Virus record (IMG/VR): IMGVR_UViG_3300037455_000245
Span: 32,001-96,000 of that record
Strand: one strand, 5' to 3'
Source of the DNA: a virus
Taxonomy: Duplodnaviria; Caudoviricetes
Length of the DNA stretch: 64,000 nt
Below, one piece after another: positions 7,725 through 17,788 of this stretch. The position numbers and the translations under genes are program-made. The notes beneath the pieces are model-generated. The model saw nothing but the letters and a program-made list of their open reading frames with translations. It did not search any database and had not been told where the DNA came from. Positions within the stretch are counted from its first letter, which is position 1. Each line of letters starts with the position of its first letter.

Positions 7725-7889
7725 TCAATGTAGGATAATTTAAGGACGAAAATAAGGCAAACTAAGATGTTTGAATCTTTGAATGGACCAGCTATCCACA
7801 AGAAGCCTAAAAATAGCTCAGGGAGCCTGAAAATAGCCTTAAATCGAATGTTTTAGCTGATCCCTAAAGCGTTCAACATAGAAATCTTA

Positions 7890-8172
7890 GCGGTCTGAGG
7901 TATTCTGTTCGGACACGGGTTCGAATCCCGTCGGGTCCACTACAGGAGGTGTCTGGATTTTACGTTTCGACAAGTTAGTCAGACTCAATTCAGGAAACTG
8001 CCGGCATTATCTGAGCCTCCTTTTCTTATATGGGCTCGATAGGCTTTAGACGGGCAGATGAAGTAAAGGCATTAACGCTTCGATATAAATTTAAACGACA
8101 ATATAAACATTGTCGACTATACGGGCCTCAAGGAGGCAGCGTAAAGTCCGTGTACAGGCTACGACAGTGCCT
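7890..8172 (+). ncRNA. ssrA: Circularly permuted (two-piece) tmRNA gene
   Basis: The acceptor piece comes first (TCTGTTC-GGAC-ACGGG-TTCGAAT-CCCGT-CGGGTCC-A, ends 7939), then a ~90-nt intervening segment, then the coding piece starting GGGCTCG at 8032. The 7-bp acceptor stem has G3-U70, helix 2a is GGGCAGA/TCTGTTC, and the tag frame 8097-8144 reads DNINIVDYTGLKEAA*. The 5' boundary is approximate. Confidence 0.9.
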
Positions 8173-8177
8173 GTGGA

Positions 8178-8248
8178 TGGATCATGGTGTAATGGTAACA
8201 CTACAGACTTTGGTTCTGTCATTTTGGGTTCGAATCCCGATGATCCAA
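8178..8248 (+). tRNA. tRNA-Gln(TTG)
   Basis: TGGATCA/TGATCCA acceptor, GTGT-AATGGT-AACAC D arm, ACAGA-CTTTGGT-TCTGT anticodon arm, TTGGG-TTCGAAT-CCCGA T arm. CCA not encoded. Confidence 0.95.
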
Positions 8249-8269
8249 CTACAACTAAAATTAATTGAC

Positions 8270-9927: not shown

Positions 9928-10001
9928 GGACTTTTAGCTCAGTTGGTTAGAGCAACAGACTCATAATCTGGAGGTCGCAGGTTCAAGCCCTGCATGGTCC
10001 A
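9928..10001 (+). tRNA. tRNA with CAT anticodon, probably Ile2 (lysidine type) rather than Met
   Basis: GGACTTT..GCTC-AGTTGGTTA-GAGC..CAGA-CTCATAA-TCTG..GCAGG-TTCAAGC-CCTGC-ATGGTCC-A. Lacks initiator features. Confidence 0.9.
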
Positions 10002-10020
10002 CAAACAAATCATAATCAAT

Positions 10021-10949: not shown

Positions 10950-11144
10950 GGCAGTCCCACCCATCCCAGGTATTTATACGCTGCATATGGGTTCTAAAAG
11001 AGGTATGGTTTGATCCAAACTGCCCGCAACACAGCGGATGTCTGTTATAGGAGTGACACCTTAATAACCATCGTCTTGGTAAAATTCCGTCCAAGCACTA
11101 ACGGTATGTCCCTCCCAGGAACTATCTACTCAATTTTGTTTGAT

Positions 11145-11705
11145 ATGGCTAAGAATCCGAAGATTACAGAAGAAGAAATAGCCCTTATCAAAAGCGCTCA
11201 AGCAGGAGAAATCTCTGCTTATAATAAACTTTATGAGAAGTACAAAAACTTCACCACAAACCTTTTGTTTAGATACATTAAGGATTTTGATGAATCCAAA
11301 GAGATTAATAATATCGTTTGGCTTAAAGTTTATAAGAAACTCTCGAAATTCAAAGACTATACTTCATTTGGAGGATGGTTGAGAATACTTACAAATCGAA
11401 CTGCAATAGATTATCTACGCAAGTTAAATGATTTGAACTATGTCTCTGACACTAATGCTCGCTTTGTATCCGAGGATGACAGAGAAGATGTTTATAATGA
11501 TAGCATCTCTGATGATATTACTTACAAACAGTTAGTTGAAACATTTAAGCAATTCCCAGAAGACGCTCGTAAAGTCTTTGAATTGTATTACGGAGAAGGT
11601 CTTACTGTCAGTGAGATTCATAAGGTTACGAACATTCCGGAAGGTACGATTAAATCGCATCTCTCACGAAAACGTAACTTGTTAAAAAACAAATTCAAAC
11701 TGTAA
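11145..11705 (+). CDS. ECF-type sigma-70 factor
   Basis: LIKSAQAGEISAYNKLYEKY, region 2 FGGWLRILTNRTAIDYLRK, region 4 GLTVSEI...IPEGTIKSHLSR. Confidence 0.92.
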   Translation: MAKNPKITEEEIALIKSAQAGEISAYNKLYEKYKNFTTNLLFRYIKDFDESKEINNIVWLKVYKKLSKFKDYTSFGGWLRILTNRTAIDYLRKLNDLNYVSDTNARFVSEDDREDVYNDSISDDITYKQLVETFKQFPEDARKVFELYYGEGLTVSEIHKVTNIPEGTIKSHLSRKRNLLKNKFKL

Positions 11706-11709
11706 AATT

Positions 11710-12120
11710 ATGATGACTTTAATCGCTTTCTTGGCTATTACAGCAGTAATCACAGCTATAGCTCGCTATAACGAAAGTGATTCTCTGTTCTGGAAGCTCT
11801 TTATCTCCCTTGTTGGAGCTTATGGAGCAGCCACTATCGTCACCCACGTGATTGATAGTAAAGAGAAGGATAAAGTCGTGATGATTGATGACAATCCCAC
11901 ACAGGTGCACAAGAGCGTAAGCTACGCTCCGTTTGTGATGCGTAGCACGTCTCTTAGTGCTACCCGTCGGGTGAAAACCCAAAAGCCTGTGAGTAAGGAT
12001 ACTGTCATTAAGAATAGCGATTCTATCCTGAGTAAGGTCTTCGTGTCTGCACGAGGCCAACCACAGATAAGCTCTGTACGACATATACTACATGAGCTTG
12101 TATACTTCGACACGTCATGA
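11710..12120 (+). CDS. Membrane protein with two N-terminal TM segments
   Basis: Two hydrophobic stretches, directly downstream of the sigma factor. Confidence 0.75.
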   Translation: MMTLIAFLAITAVITAIARYNESDSLFWKLFISLVGAYGAATIVTHVIDSKEKDKVVMIDDNPTQVHKSVSYAPFVMRSTSLSATRRVKTQKPVSKDTVIKNSDSILSKVFVSARGQPQISSVRHILHELVYFDTS

Positions 12121-12195
12121 CTGACATATTTCACTAAGAAATCACATTCGAAGTACATTTAACTAGAGTATTAACAAAAAATTTTCATTATCAAA

Positions 12196-13590
12196 ATGGG
12201 AAAGAATAATAACAAGAAAACTCCTGCTGTTGAGGCTCCTGTAGTGGAGGCCAAGCAGGTAGAAGAAGTGGGTGGAAAGTCCGCTACCGCCACCATCGTC
12301 GATATGGCCGCAGGTAAGGGCTTAACCCAAAGCGAGAAGCTGCAGTTTGCCACAGAGCTGCGCCATCGCGTGTCCGAGTTAAGAGAAGAGGACAATCCTC
12401 CTCTCGAGATGATTAAGGGCTACAACATGATCCGCGATATCACATTCATTGACCTGGCAGCAGGTGAGATTGCATGTGGTACCAGCGCGACTGGTTTCAT
12501 ATTCTCCGGAAACGAAGTTGCATACAAGGCTCTTTGTGGTCTTGCGTTGACAATGGGCGTTAAGATGCCGGACTTCAAGACTCTGCCAGCTCCTACAAAG
12601 GAACAGCTGCACAACGCTGGTCTGGAGGGTATCGGTGAGACAAAATATGTCGCCATCGAGAGCAAGGACGTGTCTAAGGAGACCAAAGAGAGAAAGAAGA
12701 AGGAGCGTAAGCTCAACGACGAAGCAGAGAAGGCTGACAAAGCCTATCTGACCGACCATACCAAGATTGAGACTCCTGAACAGCTCGGTGAGGCGCTTGG
12801 GTTTCAGTTGGTTAACCTTAAGGTTGCTAGTCCAGTTGAGCGTCTTATCACAGCAGCTCAGTTCTACCGTTCCTATCTTGAGGCTCGCGCCGAAAAGTCG
12901 GACAATCCGGAAGCTGAACTTGCTAAGATCCACGAGAATTCTCTCGCTGATCTGCTTCAGGACATTAGCACTATGGTGCCCCCCACCTTCGCCATTGAAG
13001 GCTTCGGCAAGCACTTATGCAAGCTTGCGGAATCTAACGGAAGTATTATTCCTGCGTTCAACCTGTTCCGCAAGGCTTCCATCAATAAGACGACGGGAAA
13101 GTGCAAGTTCTCTGATGAGGAATGTGCAGTCCTGGTTCGCGTCATTATTGTATGGAATGCAAGCGCTCAGATCGCAAGTATCAGTAAGGATATCAAGCTT
13201 CTGAACAAGGACGCTAAGGCTAACGCCAAGGCTATTGAGCAGTGTACTGCTAAGATTCAGCATCAGCAGGACATCATCTCTCTCGCATCAGAGCCCGATT
13301 TCGATATCGCTGACAACTTCATTGCTGCATACAAGGACAACGAACATGCTAAGCACAATCTCGCTGTAGCACTGTATAACAGCATCATATCTACGTACTA
13401 TCCTGACGCTGATATCCCTGAGTTGGAAGTCGATACTGCATTGTTGAACGTTCAGCAGCGCATCGGCATCATCATAAACCTGTTCAACTCTGAGCTTGGT
13501 AAACGTGATGATTATTCTGAAGAAAACCTGATTGCATTCTCCACCGAGGACGAAAAGCCCAAAGAAGGTGAAGGATCAAAAAACTCATAG
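12196..13590 (+). CDS. 464-aa hypothetical protein (TAG stop)
   Basis: Long ORF, strong codon bias, TTATCAAA-ATG start. Confidence 0.9.
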   Translation: MGKNNNKKTPAVEAPVVEAKQVEEVGGKSATATIVDMAAGKGLTQSEKLQFATELRHRVSELREEDNPPLEMIKGYNMIRDITFIDLAAGEIACGTSATGFIFSGNEVAYKALCGLALTMGVKMPDFKTLPAPTKEQLHNAGLEGIGETKYVAIESKDVSKETKERKKKERKLNDEAEKADKAYLTDHTKIETPEQLGEALGFQLVNLKVASPVERLITAAQFYRSYLEARAEKSDNPEAELAKIHENSLADLLQDISTMVPPTFAIEGFGKHLCKLAESNGSIIPAFNLFRKASINKTTGKCKFSDEECAVLVRVIIVWNASAQIASISKDIKLLNKDAKANAKAIEQCTAKIQHQQDIISLASEPDFDIADNFIAAYKDNEHAKHNLAVALYNSIISTYYPDADIPELEVDTALLNVQQRIGIIINLFNSELGKRDDYSEENLIAFSTEDEKPKEGEGSKNS

Positions 13591-13662
13591 TGGTCATTAA
13601 GGGAAAGGGCAAAGCCTTGATGACCAAAGTGAAGAATTACATTTTTGCTTAAACTGTGAGCT

Positions 13663-14154
13663 ATGAAACGGTTAACTACAGTAATATGTTGTATCTGTCT
13701 TATGGTAGCGGGAATCGGTCTTGCTATATATGACTCAGATACGCATCTCAATGAGCTATATGCTGGCGAACCGGCTCCATTAGTATGGAATATCCCCAAT
13801 GGGGGTGTGATACCACTCGATCTCCGATTGGATTCGGAAAAGAGACAACCTGATATCCAGATGCGAGACTCTATCAACATCATCGATTCTATTCGATGGG
13901 TTGATAAGTATCGTTATCGTATAAAGTATAAAACTGTGTCTGATCGCACAACAGCACGGGAAGCAGGTGAGCATCCGGACGGTGTCAATCCAGACACCTT
14001 AGCTGGACGTACTGCAACAATTTGTGCGCTGGAACGTGAGGAGCAACCCAGCGATACTGTTGGCACTCCTAAAGTGCCATCTATACAGCTTTCTGTCGGC
14101 GGAAAAGTTGTATATTCGAATGACGATAATCACTCCACGGGGGAGAGTCAGTGA
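13663..14154 (+). CDS. Secreted or membrane-anchored protein
   Basis: MKRLTTVICCICLMVAGIGLAIY N-terminal hydrophobic segment. Confidence 0.75.
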   Translation: MKRLTTVICCICLMVAGIGLAIYDSDTHLNELYAGEPAPLVWNIPNGGVIPLDLRLDSEKRQPDIQMRDSINIIDSIRWVDKYRYRIKYKTVSDRTTAREAGEHPDGVNPDTLAGRTATICALEREEQPSDTVGTPKVPSIQLSVGGKVVYSNDDNHSTGESQ

Positions 14155-16282
14155 GGATTCACTGGCTCTCCGGCCATTGGGCATCCCGCTTAGTCCACGT
14201 CAACGGTCTCATTAGCCGGGACGAAAGAGTACAACTTGATCCGAGAATATGTCGAGCCCCAAAGGCAAACTCAAAAGGTAGGATGAAATGCTGTATAGTC
14301 ATACGTACTCTATGACAGAAAAGTATACAGTAAGAGGTGTGAGAGGTGTATCAACACCTTGCTGCCTCCCGAGAACCGATTGGTGGGGAGGATTGCCAGC
14401 TAAACTCTCGTAAGTCGCAAGAAGCGCAAAATGAACCGTATCGACAGATCTACTATAATGATACATAGTAGTAGAATAACGTTACACGAGTTGAACATAC
14501 AGTAAAGATGCCAAACCCTGTATGATGTATCAATTCACTATTGCTGTAGTCCAGTGTTCCACGCAATCCAGGGCGTGTATGAAGGGATGAAGAATTATCT
14601 GAGTATATGAACCTAGCGGAAGGTTTGACTGTCCGCGCCGTACCGTAACTACGGTCCTTGAAGAAATCCTTCCTGTGTCGAGACAGGATGACCACCTTTG
14701 AGGCCAAGGTCCCAATGGGTCACCGGGGATGGGGTGCTGAGGAAAATATGATGAAGATGACCGCCAGGCTTTGGTCGTTCAAGCGGTATAAGACACGTGG
14801 AATTGATTCGTGCTAAAAGTAAATGACCACCAGTTCGATGCAGGAACTGATTGATTAGTAGCGCCTAGAGGCGTGATTGCTGCCCGAGTGAAGGCCGGGA
14901 TGAAAGCCTATTCAAACGGCACATAGTTCTAGTAAGCAAGAACTCACTGTGTAGATGGGAGATGTACCAGAGGAAATGCTGGAGTCGAAGGATGACAACC
15001 TGACAGTCAAAACCAAGTTTTTTACAATATCGGTCGATTCGAGGTCTATACATACCAGTGTAGAAGGAGATCGCCAACGTCTGTATAGGATAATATAGTA
15101 GAACACTGATATACTATATCAGCGAGAGTAGTAAACTCGTGTGCGGTATATCTTTAGTTACAAGCAAAACTATATGAAAGTAGCCAGATGAAGTTAACAT
15201 GTTGAACAAAATTAAGTGTCCCTCTATGAAATCTATTACGTTATGTATAATCGGGATAGAGTCCGCTACCTCCTGTTGTATGGGAGAACATAGCCATTTT
15301 AGACGTATGATAGAGAAGCTTGAGTGCCAACCGTTTCTGAGAAGCAAGTAGCAGGATAGATAATAGTTTGGGGTTAGACTGCAAATCTAACTAATCGGCT
15401 TAGTCTATGAAGCAATATACGCAAACGATGCAAGGCAGCCTATCGCAAAATGAAATCACCTCACTGTCTATGAGGGGTAAAGGAAATGAGTAATTAGTCC
15501 GTCGAAAGATGGTTCGCTGATGAAAAGGACTCGATGAAGTGGCGCATTAGGTGGGTGATAAATCTTATAGCGTATGAGGTGGAATTCCTCCAGTATTCGC
15601 GCACTATAAACAGAAGCCAGCAGCAAAGCTGAATGTACAGTAAAAAGCCGTAGGTCCATCATGGGTTCTGGAGCCCTAGGCCATGTCCGATAAAGAAACA
15701 CGTTCCTCTTGACGTGAGATGCCACATGCTGATAAACAACGAAGCCAGATCCAACTGGAAAGCAAATGGACGAGAACGTTAATGTTGCTGTTAGTCTCGT
15801 AAAATATTCAGAAGCATAGCAGACAATCTTCGACACTTATTTGGAACGTACAGCGAGAAGATACACTGCACCTTATTGGTTTACGTTATTTGCATCTATG
15901 AGCACTAGGCCGTGACCATCGTAAGATGTAGCTACTCTGCCAACGAGCGCAAATAATATTTTACAAAAACTAAATATTGTGTTTTATATTTGGTGCTTGA
16001 TTGCACAACTGGCAATTAGCGCTTTTGATCCTTATATAGAGATGGGCTTGTATATCCTACCGTTGGATTCCCGTCGTACGAGTTGAGCTTCACTTTGAGG
16101 AATATAGAAGTATGACAACTATGTAAGTAAACGCGCTTCCCATGAGCATAGCACAACCAGAATAAGAAACAAATTAGAAACACAACATACTTTTTATAGG
16201 CAACGTCCCGCCTTAGAAGTGGACAAGTTCATTACCTGATATCGTTGGTTAATCAATAACGATGTCAAAAAGGATATAAGGT
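14155..16282 (+). ncRNA. ~2.1 kb ORF-free region, putative very large structured RNA or RNA cluster
   Basis: No + strand ORF of 60 aa or more. Dense hairpins, e.g. CTGTATA-GTCATA/TATGAC-TATACAG (14291-14330), CCTCCC/GGGAGG, CATACAG/CTGTATG, TCCTGT/ACAGGA, CAGTTC/GAACTG, AGTTCT/AGAACT. Confidence 0.55.
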
Positions 16283-16900
16283 ATGGCATATAACGAAATG
16301 GATATTGCCCTGGAGTCAGTACGACCCCAGGTTATCAACATTAGCCGCACGCTCCCAACTGGAGCAAAGTTTTACAAAGTAGAAGCAACTGACATTGATC
16401 AGGGCTTCGAAGAGCGCAAGAATCAGCTGATGGCTGATCCTAACACTCCTGAGTTTATTTTCAATCGTTCACCGCGCGTCATCGTGTTGAAGGACTTCAG
16501 CGTGAAGAGCCAGGACTTTGAGGTCGACATTGACGGCAACAAAGTGGTGGTCTTCAATAAGGGTACGAATGAGCAAGCCCAAGCAACGATCGTTGCTGGT
16601 GGTGTGAACTTTGGTCAGACCACCGATGAGGCCATGAAGGATGCACTTCGTGGGCAAGATCGTATCTTTGCCGACGGCATTAAGACCGCCACAAAGGTGA
16701 ACGCTCTGAACGCAGCTGAGCTCTCCCGTGTGGAGGCCATGATCAAGTACTGGACTGGAAAGGCTGATGCCATCCGTTCAGCAATTGCTTCCAACAGCAA
16801 GAAGGTCAAGGACTACCAGGACGTTCTCGCTAAGTTCCGCAAGGATATCGATTTGTCTGCCGGAGACGGCGACGGCTTCGCAGTACAGGTTGAAGGATAA
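16283..16900 (+). CDS. Hypothetical protein
   Basis: 205 aa, strong codon bias. Confidence 0.88.
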   Translation: MAYNEMDIALESVRPQVINISRTLPTGAKFYKVEATDIDQGFEERKNQLMADPNTPEFIFNRSPRVIVLKDFSVKSQDFEVDIDGNKVVVFNKGTNEQAQATIVAGGVNFGQTTDEAMKDALRGQDRIFADGIKTATKVNALNAAELSRVEAMIKYWTGKADAIRSAIASNSKKVKDYQDVLAKFRKDIDLSAGDGDGFAVQVEG

Positions 16901-16902
16901 GT

Positions 16903-17505
16903 ATGGCGAACTCGGTTGATGATGCAAAGCTGCAGGCTCCCGAGTTAATATCGCTCTTACTGAAGGAACCAAAAATCCTTCAGAAGATTGTATTGGCTAT
17001 GAAGCCTAAAGCGCGGGGTTACACCAAATGGAAGGTTGTACCTGAAGAAGAACGAATTTATCTGGGAAAATATTCCTGGCATGGATTTGGAGAATTCTGG
17101 AACAATCTTATCAAATGCTGTGATCACATCTCTTTCGACGATTTCTACATTAAAGTGTGGGATGCGTTGGTTGAGATGACTGCTGGTACTGAAGCACACG
17201 AAGCCGTGCTTGAAGGACTTTCTCGTGAAGTTCTCATGCAAGGCATCCACGCAAAGGACCAGAATATACTTCATCGATTCTTCGATGTATGTCGACATTT
17301 AACATCCGATGGATATTGGAGGGACAAGGGACTGAAGCGGGATAATCCGCCTCACCACCATTTTAAAGGCTGTCCGTATTCTGGTGATGTAGAAATAGAG
17401 GTAGAACCTCATGGCCGACCGCGACCTGGAGTATTTCGGGTGGTAGACTCGGTTGGAGATGCATTTGAGATTATTAATGTGAAATGGTTAGGTGGACGTC
17501 ATTAA
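16903..17505 (+). CDS. Hypothetical protein
   Basis: 200-aa ORF 2 nt after the upstream stop. Confidence 0.85.
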   Translation: MANSVDDAKLQAPELISLLLKEPKILQKIVLAMKPKARGYTKWKVVPEEERIYLGKYSWHGFGEFWNNLIKCCDHISFDDFYIKVWDALVEMTAGTEAHEAVLEGLSREVLMQGIHAKDQNILHRFFDVCRHLTSDGYWRDKGLKRDNPPHHHFKGCPYSGDVEIEVEPHGRPRPGVFRVVDSVGDAFEIINVKWLGGRH

Positions 17506-17727
17506 ACGGGTACGTCGGGCCTCTGCGGGGGTCTGTAGTTATTGGTCTGAGGGCTGGTGCTACAATTGGTATCTGTGTTAATGATAACACTTAAACAAGT
17601 CGCACAAACGTTTTAAGTGCGCTCAAAATAGACACAACAGCTATACTTTGATTAGGAACTCTGCGGGGGGCCATATAGTCAAAGTATAGCTGTCAGGTTT
17701 CTAATGAAGTGATTTATTAGAAACTGC
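17506..17727 (+). promoter_or_regulatory. Hairpin cluster with two CTCTGCGGGGG apices and a GTGA-loop hairpin
   Basis: Motif at 17521 and 17659. 18-bp stem ACAGCTATACTTTGATTA/TAGTCAAAGTATAGCTGT. GTTTCTAATGAA-GTGA-TTTATTAGAAAC. Confidence 0.55.
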
Positions 17728-17788
17728 AAGGTAAATGATGCTCGAATTCAATTTTAATTAACATGTCTAACTAAATCAAGAATTGCTT

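Follow-up and report, generated by a model that had tools for sequence, protein, structure and literature searches.

The subject of this work is a stretch of about 2.1 kb without protein-coding genes in a viral genome whose nearest public relatives are crAss-like phages of the subfamily Oafivirinae (cr272_1, cr273_1, cr131_1, cr130_1, cr7_1, cr124_1, and one Bohxovirus). The window, that is, the whole 64,000-nucleotide (nt) stretch of DNA that was analyzed, comprises bases 32001-96000 of the 105,228-base IMG/VR virus record IMGVR_UViG_3300037455_000245, which is rated complete by CheckV, and all positions given here are those of the window unless another record is named. The non-coding locus occupies positions 14155-16282 on the + strand, from the stop codon of a gene for a 163-amino acid (aa) protein (ending at 14154) to the ATG of a gene for a 205-aa protein (16283). 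A preliminary description of this DNA had proposed that the stretch harbors an undescribed large RNA or a cluster of RNAs. This proposal is supported by our analysis: a coding signal, a lack of synteny or covariation in relatives, signs of a replication origin, and a decayed intron were each tested as findings that would speak against it, and none occurred. We are highly confident that the stretch is a conserved structured RNA locus.

Absence of protein-coding capacity

The longest standard-code open reading frame (ORF) within 14155-16282 spans only 122 aa and lies on the - strand. Each frame contains between 21 and 52 stop codons and reassignment of a single stop opens no frame, which bears out the earlier view of the stretch as ORF-free. 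Mismatches relative to homologous sequences are spread evenly over the three codon phases, and insertions and deletions (indels) are mostly 1-2 nt long. Open stretches on the - strand do recur in relatives at relative positions ~330-1000, some of them annotated in GenBank, and in the window itself a 286-aa - strand stretch opens when TAG is read as a residue. Where these stretches recur, the period-3 power is 0-1.4 and the indels are mostly not multiples of three, whereas the downstream gene, used as a positive control, gave a period-3 power of 4-63 with indels in threes. The TAG-joined - strand candidate thus fails as a gene, as the preliminary description had concluded. The recurrent open stretches are a composition effect, as the + strand is purine-rich and the - strand is therefore poor in stop codons. 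The longest standard-code frames in the relatives measure 79-198 aa, mostly ~80-150 aa, and shuffled window sequence gave a mean of 102 aa with a 95th percentile of 145. Coding sequences (CDS) are annotated in GenBank or RefSeq inside several of the homologous gaps (L003 3443-3949, L006 4250-4732, L132 4396-4581, and L136 10383-10544). These annotations share neither frame nor position and show no coding signal, and they are probably spurious.

Conservation and synteny of the locus

A search with a 3'-end motif of 17 nt matched 102 IMG/VR stretches, ~84 of which are homologs carrying the locus between the same two genes. The gap between these genes measured 2075-2324 nt in all 24 of the 24 relatives first collected. 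From the 5' loop motif to the 3' motif the distance was 2015-2280 nt (75 sequences), so that the length is held within ~6%. Among 24 representatives less than 93% identical to each other, the mean pairwise nucleotide identity was 0.573 in the gap versus 0.47 in either flank. Blocks in colinear order remain 75-95% identical even in genera in which the flanking 205-aa protein shares only ~30% identity, and comparison of the window with one relative, L095, gave 82% identity in the tested part of the gap and ~38% in the next gene. The element is held more tightly than the adjacent genes, and it therefore almost certainly does something important.

Searches of 50,697 phage records with the locus (blastn) returned only Oafivirinae-type phages, as did tblastn searches with the 205-aa protein and with a 464-aa protein encoded upstream. 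Other subfamilies were reached through searches with the sigma factor and the DNA polymerase encoded nearby. Homologous gaps of ~2.0-2.5 kb were found at the same position in four subfamilies, Oafivirinae, Boorivirinae (2456 nt in cr10_1, 2514 nt in cr50_1, and 2481 nt in cr1_1), Loutivirinae (2147 nt in cr4_1 and 2152 nt in cr56_1), and Uncouvirinae (1851-2055 nt in cr125_1). The shared gene order comprises the sigma factor, proteins of ~130, ~470, and ~130 aa, the gap, and proteins of ~190 and ~180 aa, with the DNA polymerase some genes later; in cr4_1 and cr10_1 the ~470-aa gene is the next annotated one after the sigma factor. All gaps in the other subfamilies are ORF-free and purine-rich on the gene strand.

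No similarity to the Oafivirinae locus was found with blastn using the cr10_1 gap; an Oafivirinae profile matched the gaps of the other subfamilies colinearly. The E values for the 5' domain were 1e-23 and 9e-12 in Loutivirinae and 1e-9 to 5e-5 in Boorivirinae, and those for a central core were 2e-10, 1e-9, 1.5e-7, and 8e-3. The Uncouvirinae gap is linked indirectly, through Loutivirinae and Boorivirinae. The cores common to the subfamilies map to ~14215-14420 and 15180-15600 of the window. R1, a covariance model built for the 5' domain, matched two Boorivirinae gaps at 33 and 31.5 bits; one helix there has AU/AU in place of CC/GG. The gap of cr1_1 also contains a hairpin with a near-exact copy of the loop motif GAUCUCAUUAGUC ~400 nt before its 3' end (L134 5181-5289). 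This motif sits at the 5' end in Oafivirinae, and its displacement suggests module shuffling or a second copy. With regard to nomenclature, the taxonomy dump places Oafivirinae in the family Darmviridae and the phage records place it in Suoliviridae; any family-wide statement made here follows the records.

Covariation supports a conserved secondary structure

Sliding-window analysis with RNAalifold revealed covarying pairs in nearly every window across 14164-15650 and 15880-16282. No covarying pairs appeared in column shuffles, nor in the flanking genes of the same phages treated with the same pipeline. The full-length consensus fold contains 143 pairs in ~30 helices, and 93.3% of the cells pair. 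The preliminary description had called for synteny and covariation to be sought in relatives, and both are present, the former in ~84 relatives and the latter as compensatory changes on both sides of 97 of the 143 pairs. The whole-structure covariation score was 0.499, compared with a mean of 0.21 (maximum 0.231) after shuffling of partners and with 0.08-0.10 when partners were slid by 1-3 columns. These statistics were computed by a custom script on alignment A4 (3400 columns), which is not structure-aware, and a separate pair counter was applied to the 5' domain only.

The consensus fold is also strand-specific in energy, at -82.3 kcal/mol for the + strand versus -56.0 kcal/mol for the - strand. 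Antiparallel helices spanning up to 120 nt exceeded meaningless parallel helices used as a control, by 17 to 5 at a score of at least 5 and by 5 to 0 at a score of at least 7. The locus is thus under strong selection for RNA secondary structure, mostly in the form of local helices and small branched domains in a fixed order.

Strand asymmetry extends to short motifs. ATGA is sevenfold more common on the + strand than on the - strand, and GATGAA occurs at 3.3 per kb in the locus versus 0.41 per kb in other + strand sequence, with no occurrence on the - strand. The element (U)AUGA(A/G), often as GAUGAA, recurs at 14737-14756 and at about eight further sites.

Structural modules of the locus

At the 5' boundary, positions 14143-14154 pair with 14159-14170 on the + strand in a stem of 12 pairs, including one G-U, that covers the upstream TGA (14152-14154). 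This is the strong hairpin that had been described as overlapping the upstream stop, and it proved real. It has no T-run behind it and is not among the sites returned by a terminator scan; it may be a processing site. The 5' domain (14192-14292) follows with a hairpin that has two stems, outer and inner, and a loop, CUCAUUA, that hardly varies, and with a second helix that encloses a covarying hairpin (loop CUCAA) and the conserved run CAAAAGGUAGGAUGAA. R1 scored 78 bits at this domain in the window and found every representative at 41-117 bits. In the model-fitted alignment, 92.9% of the cells pair and double changes occur in 21 of the 24 pairs, with a covariation score of 0.473 versus 0.156 in shuffled controls (reached in 0 of 500) and 0.04-0.12 with slid partners. 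This alignment leans towards the model, and the same compensations can be read in unfitted alignments.

Several of the helices listed in the preliminary description recur in the next part of the locus. The hairpin at 14365-14391, built around the conserved run GAGAACCG, was verified by direct reading of alignment A4, in which its stem is compensatory between lineages. Covariation upheld several others, namely those at 14637-14655, 14671-14688, 14831-14849, ~14927-14942, and 15118-15144. A candidate H-type pseudoknot lies at 14438-14475; one of its stems, 14438-14443 with 14459-14464, is invariant and so beyond covariation testing, and the other, 14449-14455 with 14469-14475, covaries with a score of 14. 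Two covarying hairpins (14637-14642 with 14650-14655 and 14671-14675 with 14684-14688) follow, the second of which has a T-loop-like loop, UUCGAUU, in most relatives. At 14737-14756, a conserved CUGA is separated by 5-9 nt from GAUGAAG, an arrangement that we take to resemble a K-loop or K-turn motif. Next, a branched domain (14767-14908) is closed by the helix 14767-14772 with 14903-14908 and contains the inner helices 14774-14780 with 14821-14827, 14831-14835 with 14845-14849, and 14883-14886 with 14896-14899.

The central conserved core (15118-15333) begins with the hairpin 15118-15144 and includes a conserved single-stranded block (15197-15224), a helix (15223-15227 with 15310-15314) that encloses 15271-15285, and the conserved run GAGUGCCAACCG at 15322-15333. 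The core and the 5' domain are the two parts that the profile recognizes in other subfamilies. Downstream, a hairpin (15507-15512 with 15520-15525) precedes a helix (15550-15558 with 15597-15605) around the conserved runs GUGGGUGA and GAGGUGGAAUUCCUCC. The segment 15650-15950 is the least conserved of the locus. The 3' domain (15993-16116) contains a covarying hairpin (15993-15996 with 16003-16006) with a conserved loop, UUGAUU, and two helices (16053-16057 with 16065-16069 and 16073-16078 with 16111-16116). Finally, the 3' terminal element (16240-16274) consists of the hairpin 16240-16246 with 16258-16264 followed by UCAAAAAGGA, ends 8 nt before the ATG of the 205-aa gene, and is ~94% identical across genera. 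An internal duplication, with the locus composed of two 1-kb copies, was considered and rejected; the halves are not duplicates.

Transcription and genomic setting

Contigs assembled from bovine-gut RNA libraries of three studies cover the locus. In run X2 the contig depth is ~22-30 over 11041-17689 and ~9-10 beyond, and in run X16 it is 173, 141, and 110 over 14953-17659 and 23 beyond. The uncovered parts of the flanks in X3, X16, and X23 carry no information, as the relatives there may be too divergent. In two runs from different studies the step in depth adjoins the terminator-like site at 17516-17538. Uniform phage DNA would give no such step, and it is therefore read as a weak hint of transcription, suggesting that the locus is transcribed with its neighbors in a unit ending near 17.6 kb.

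The genes around the locus lie on the + strand. A phage sigma-70/ECF-type factor (11010-11705) is encoded three genes upstream and is syntenic in all four subfamilies, and the adjacent upstream gene (13663-14154), also syntenic, encodes the fast-diverging 163-aa protein with an N-terminal hydrophobic segment (signal or membrane). The context of a sigma factor and a membrane protein that had been noted from the sequence is therefore correct. The syntenic gene for the 464-aa protein (12196-13590) has a G+C content of ~50% in a phage of ~38%, and its product combines a disordered N-terminus rich in Lys, Pro, Ala, and Glu with an all-helical body without a fold match. Downstream, two syntenic genes (16283-17505) encode the 205-aa protein and a 200-aa protein. 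They are followed by the terminator-like hairpin with a T-rich tail (17516-17538), just past which the RNA-library contig depth falls. Very low folding z-scores, confined to the + strand, were obtained at 17000-17299 (-8.0) and 17450-17749 (-8.1), which cover the end of the 200-aa gene and the spacer with this hairpin; they are stronger than anything within the non-coding locus. The locus is part of the replication and early module, and the DNA polymerase gene lies 4 kb downstream of it.

Searches of the flanking proteins against Pfam and PHROGs identified nothing beyond the sigma factor and the polymerase, and profile searches of the Protein Data Bank gave only low-complexity helical matches. 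AlphaFold models of the 464-aa and 205-aa proteins (predicted local distance difference test [pLDDT] scores of 74.5 and 81.7) had no Foldseek match at E <= 0.001.

Public runs that carry a near-identical stretch are labeled bovine gut, and phages of this group are common in cattle, pig, and primate guts. The + strand genes at 1-29 kb use the standard code. The late genes on the - strand (29785-62640) need TAG as a residue, unlike the + strand genes; - strand frames of 2431, 5740, 575, 602, 1327, and 314 codons at 29.8-62.6 kb are open only on this reading. No suppressor tRNA was seen within the window. A permuted transfer-messenger RNA (tmRNA; Rfam tmRNA_permuted, 49.4 bits) lies directly 5' of a tRNA-Gln(TTG), with a tRNA-Met(CAT) further on (7850-8249 and 9928-10002).

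Comparison with known RNAs

A cmscan search of the whole window against Rfam 15 at gathering thresholds, proposed in the preliminary description, identified only the two tRNAs and the permuted tmRNA; no family, GOLLD, ROOL, and OLE included, matches the locus. When 13500-17000 was scanned with E values up to 10, only three chance-level matches were returned (a CRISPR repeat, a microRNA, and isrF). The models for introns (Intron_gpI, Intron_gpII, and group II D1-D4) gave no match either, in agreement with the earlier failure to see a group I or group II intron. No description of the locus was found among the searched papers on crAss-like phages or Suoliviridae and non-coding RNA, and Yutin et al. 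2021 (PMC7886860) do not mention it. The locus matches no catalogued RNA family and is far longer than the known ornate phage RNAs.

The closest precedent among crAss-like phages is the Cellulophaga phage phi14:2. Two of its intergenic regions, g004-g005 and g005-g006, give rise to long non-coding RNAs that outstrip the transcripts of most genes already at the earliest time point and remain present afterwards (Drobysheva et al., 10.1101/2020.03.07.982082). No function is assigned to these RNAs, and no conserved structure appears to have been reported for them, unlike the locus described here. Both these regions and the locus are long, intergenic, and placed among the rightward early genes of a crAss-like phage; position and orientation fit. 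However, phi14:2 belongs to a different phage family, no nucleotide similarity is detectable with blastn, and transcription of the locus is only hinted at by contigs of RNA libraries, which give no level.

GOLLD and ROOL are, like the locus, large, conserved, covarying, phage-associated non-coding RNAs without an assigned function, and ROOL is likewise known from the rumen. They measure roughly 600-800 nt, a size on which the locus would be ~2.5-4 times longer. Both form RNA-only multimers, as determined by cryo-electron microscopy (cryo-EM) (bioRxiv 10.1101/2024.12.08.627333). They have defined global folds, whereas only local helices are supported for the locus. OLE offers a different analogy, as a large structured RNA that is encoded beside membrane-associated proteins and works with them; the gene upstream of the locus also encodes a hydrophobic N-terminus. 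OLE is a chromosomal RNA of ~600 nt in extremophilic Firmicutes. The locus differs from it in having no Rfam match, and homologs of the OLE partner proteins were not detected among the neighbors by Pfam.

Interpretation and alternative explanations

On balance we favor, with somewhat better than even confidence, the reading that the locus gives rise to a stable structured RNA from an early or middle + strand transcript and that it acts as an RNA or as the scaffold of a ribonucleoprotein (RNP). Transcription would run rightward through the + strand genes, starting at 11.0 kb or further upstream and ending at ~17.6 kb, and the transcript would be kept as a stable structured RNA, either whole or after processing, with the 12-pair hairpin at 14143-14170 and the 3' hairpin at 16240-16264 as candidate boundaries. 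During infection such an RNA would most probably serve as a scaffold or sponge for phage or host proteins, which could bind through the many conserved single-stranded motifs. We propose a resemblance to the long non-coding RNAs of phi14:2 and to GOLLD and ROOL. The individual parts of this reading differ in strength. That the locus works as one RNA of ~2.1 kb is nearly an even call, leaning slightly towards doubt, and action in trans as an RNP is a tentative suggestion that we hold with less conviction. The boldest version, in which every Suoliviridae phage makes, early in infection, a single RNA of 2.1-2.5 kb that adopts a defined three-dimensional fold or multimeric assembly, or else an RNA-protein machine, appears unlikely.

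A number of results weigh against the favored reading. Minimum free energy (MFE) z-scores in 300-nt windows were -1.3 to +1.9 in the gap, compared with -3 to -8 in the flanking genes, so the hairpin density noted in the preliminary description does not exceed chance thermodynamically and is not the evidence on which the RNA reading should rest. Helices spanning 120-400 nt numbered 14 versus 13 parallel controls and those spanning more than 400 nt numbered 25 versus 25 (score of at least 5). Without an excess of mid- or long-range helices, there is nothing to join the locus into a single fold; this amounts to an absence of evidence and no more, as an alignment that is not structure-aware costs power. 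The ~300 nt at 15650-15950 are poorly conserved and show no consensus structure in the alignment. A search for sigma-70 and Bacteroidetes-type promoter patterns and a terminator scan found nothing distinctive inside the locus. The RNA-library data consist of assembled contigs, which give no ends, strand, or level, and DNA carry-over is possible. Family and fold searches found no RNA-binding partner among the neighboring proteins, and no TROVE (Ro60-like) protein was found in the phage.

Two alternatives keep an RNA but change its nature, and we regard each as rather improbable, though a serious rival. The 2.1 kb could be a giant structured 5' untranslated region of the mRNA that encodes the 205-aa and 200-aa proteins, controlling translation, stability, or read-through in cis with no role of its own. 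The best conserved piece (94%) is indeed the 3' hairpin with UCAAAAAGGA, 8 nt before the ATG, an X16 RNA-run contig (15979-17659) crosses the junction into both genes, and there is no terminator-like site between the locus and these genes. A run, AUCC, at the 5' end could moreover pair either locally or with GGAU at 16272-16275. However, such long-range pairing comprises only 4 pairs and is not above control, and in L041 and L082 true Watson-Crick compensation is found only for the local pairing. Conservation and covariation 2 kb upstream of the ATG equal those adjoining it, and we know of no bacterial or phage leader that nears 2 kb with ~30 conserved helices. The locus could otherwise hold a cluster of small structured RNAs that are independent of each other, or of hairpins with a regulatory role at the RNA level, several of them lying side by side. 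This would agree with the finding that local helices alone exceed control, with the poorly conserved ~300-nt stretch that splits the locus, with a similarity to other subfamilies that is recognizable in two parts only, and with the presence of the CUCAUUA-loop hairpin elsewhere in a Boorivirinae gap. Against a cluster stand the constancy of order and total length (within ~6% among the 75 sequences and 2.0-2.5 kb across four subfamilies) and the lack of standout internal promoter or terminator signals. Its two halves are not duplicates, and covarying structure also spans an AT-rich spot near 15990 that could otherwise have been taken for a promoter.

Explanations without a functional RNA fare considerably worse. 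It is very unlikely that the locus acts at the DNA level, for example as a replication origin, a packaging site, or a protein-binding array. Such a role would suit the replication and early module in which the locus lies, 4 kb ahead of the DNA polymerase gene, and some blocks are conserved in sequence without covariation. The GC skew, however, switches near 30 kb, where the gene blocks meet, and not at the locus, which has no iterons or tandem repeats, and the compensatory changes, together with the many G-U pairs of one strand, indicate selection on a single-stranded transcript. Two-copy direct repeats of 18 nt and 12 nt are present and are too few to interpret. Least credible of all is the alternative that the locus is a protein gene, whether hidden or decayed, or the decayed remnant of a group I or group II intron. 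Short CDS annotated in homologous gaps and the 286-aa - strand stretch opened by TAG as a residue are what a hidden gene would have in its favor, but over precisely those ORFs a period-3 signal is lacking and many indels measure 1-2 nt. Neither the position nor the frame of the annotated ORFs is conserved, and open-frame lengths in the relatives are close to those of shuffled sequence. As for an intron, no intron model matches at E values up to 10, and the flanking ORFs are complete and separate, each with its own start, in all relatives. Decay of a gene or an intron would also not yield a conservation that exceeds that of the neighboring genes.

Implications

About 2% of a tightly packed 100-kb genome is given to this non-coding element. 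A covariance model of its 5' domain would provide a specific marker for the phage family. If the locus is one RNA, it would stretch the known sizes of ornate RNAs from bacteria and phages about threefold. Such an RNA would be a natural target for cryo-EM and for the study of how crAss-like phages take over Bacteroidales cells. If the proposal of a single folded or assembled RNA holds true, it would be larger than any structured non-ribosomal RNA so far known from a bacterial virus, and its function would be new to phage biology.

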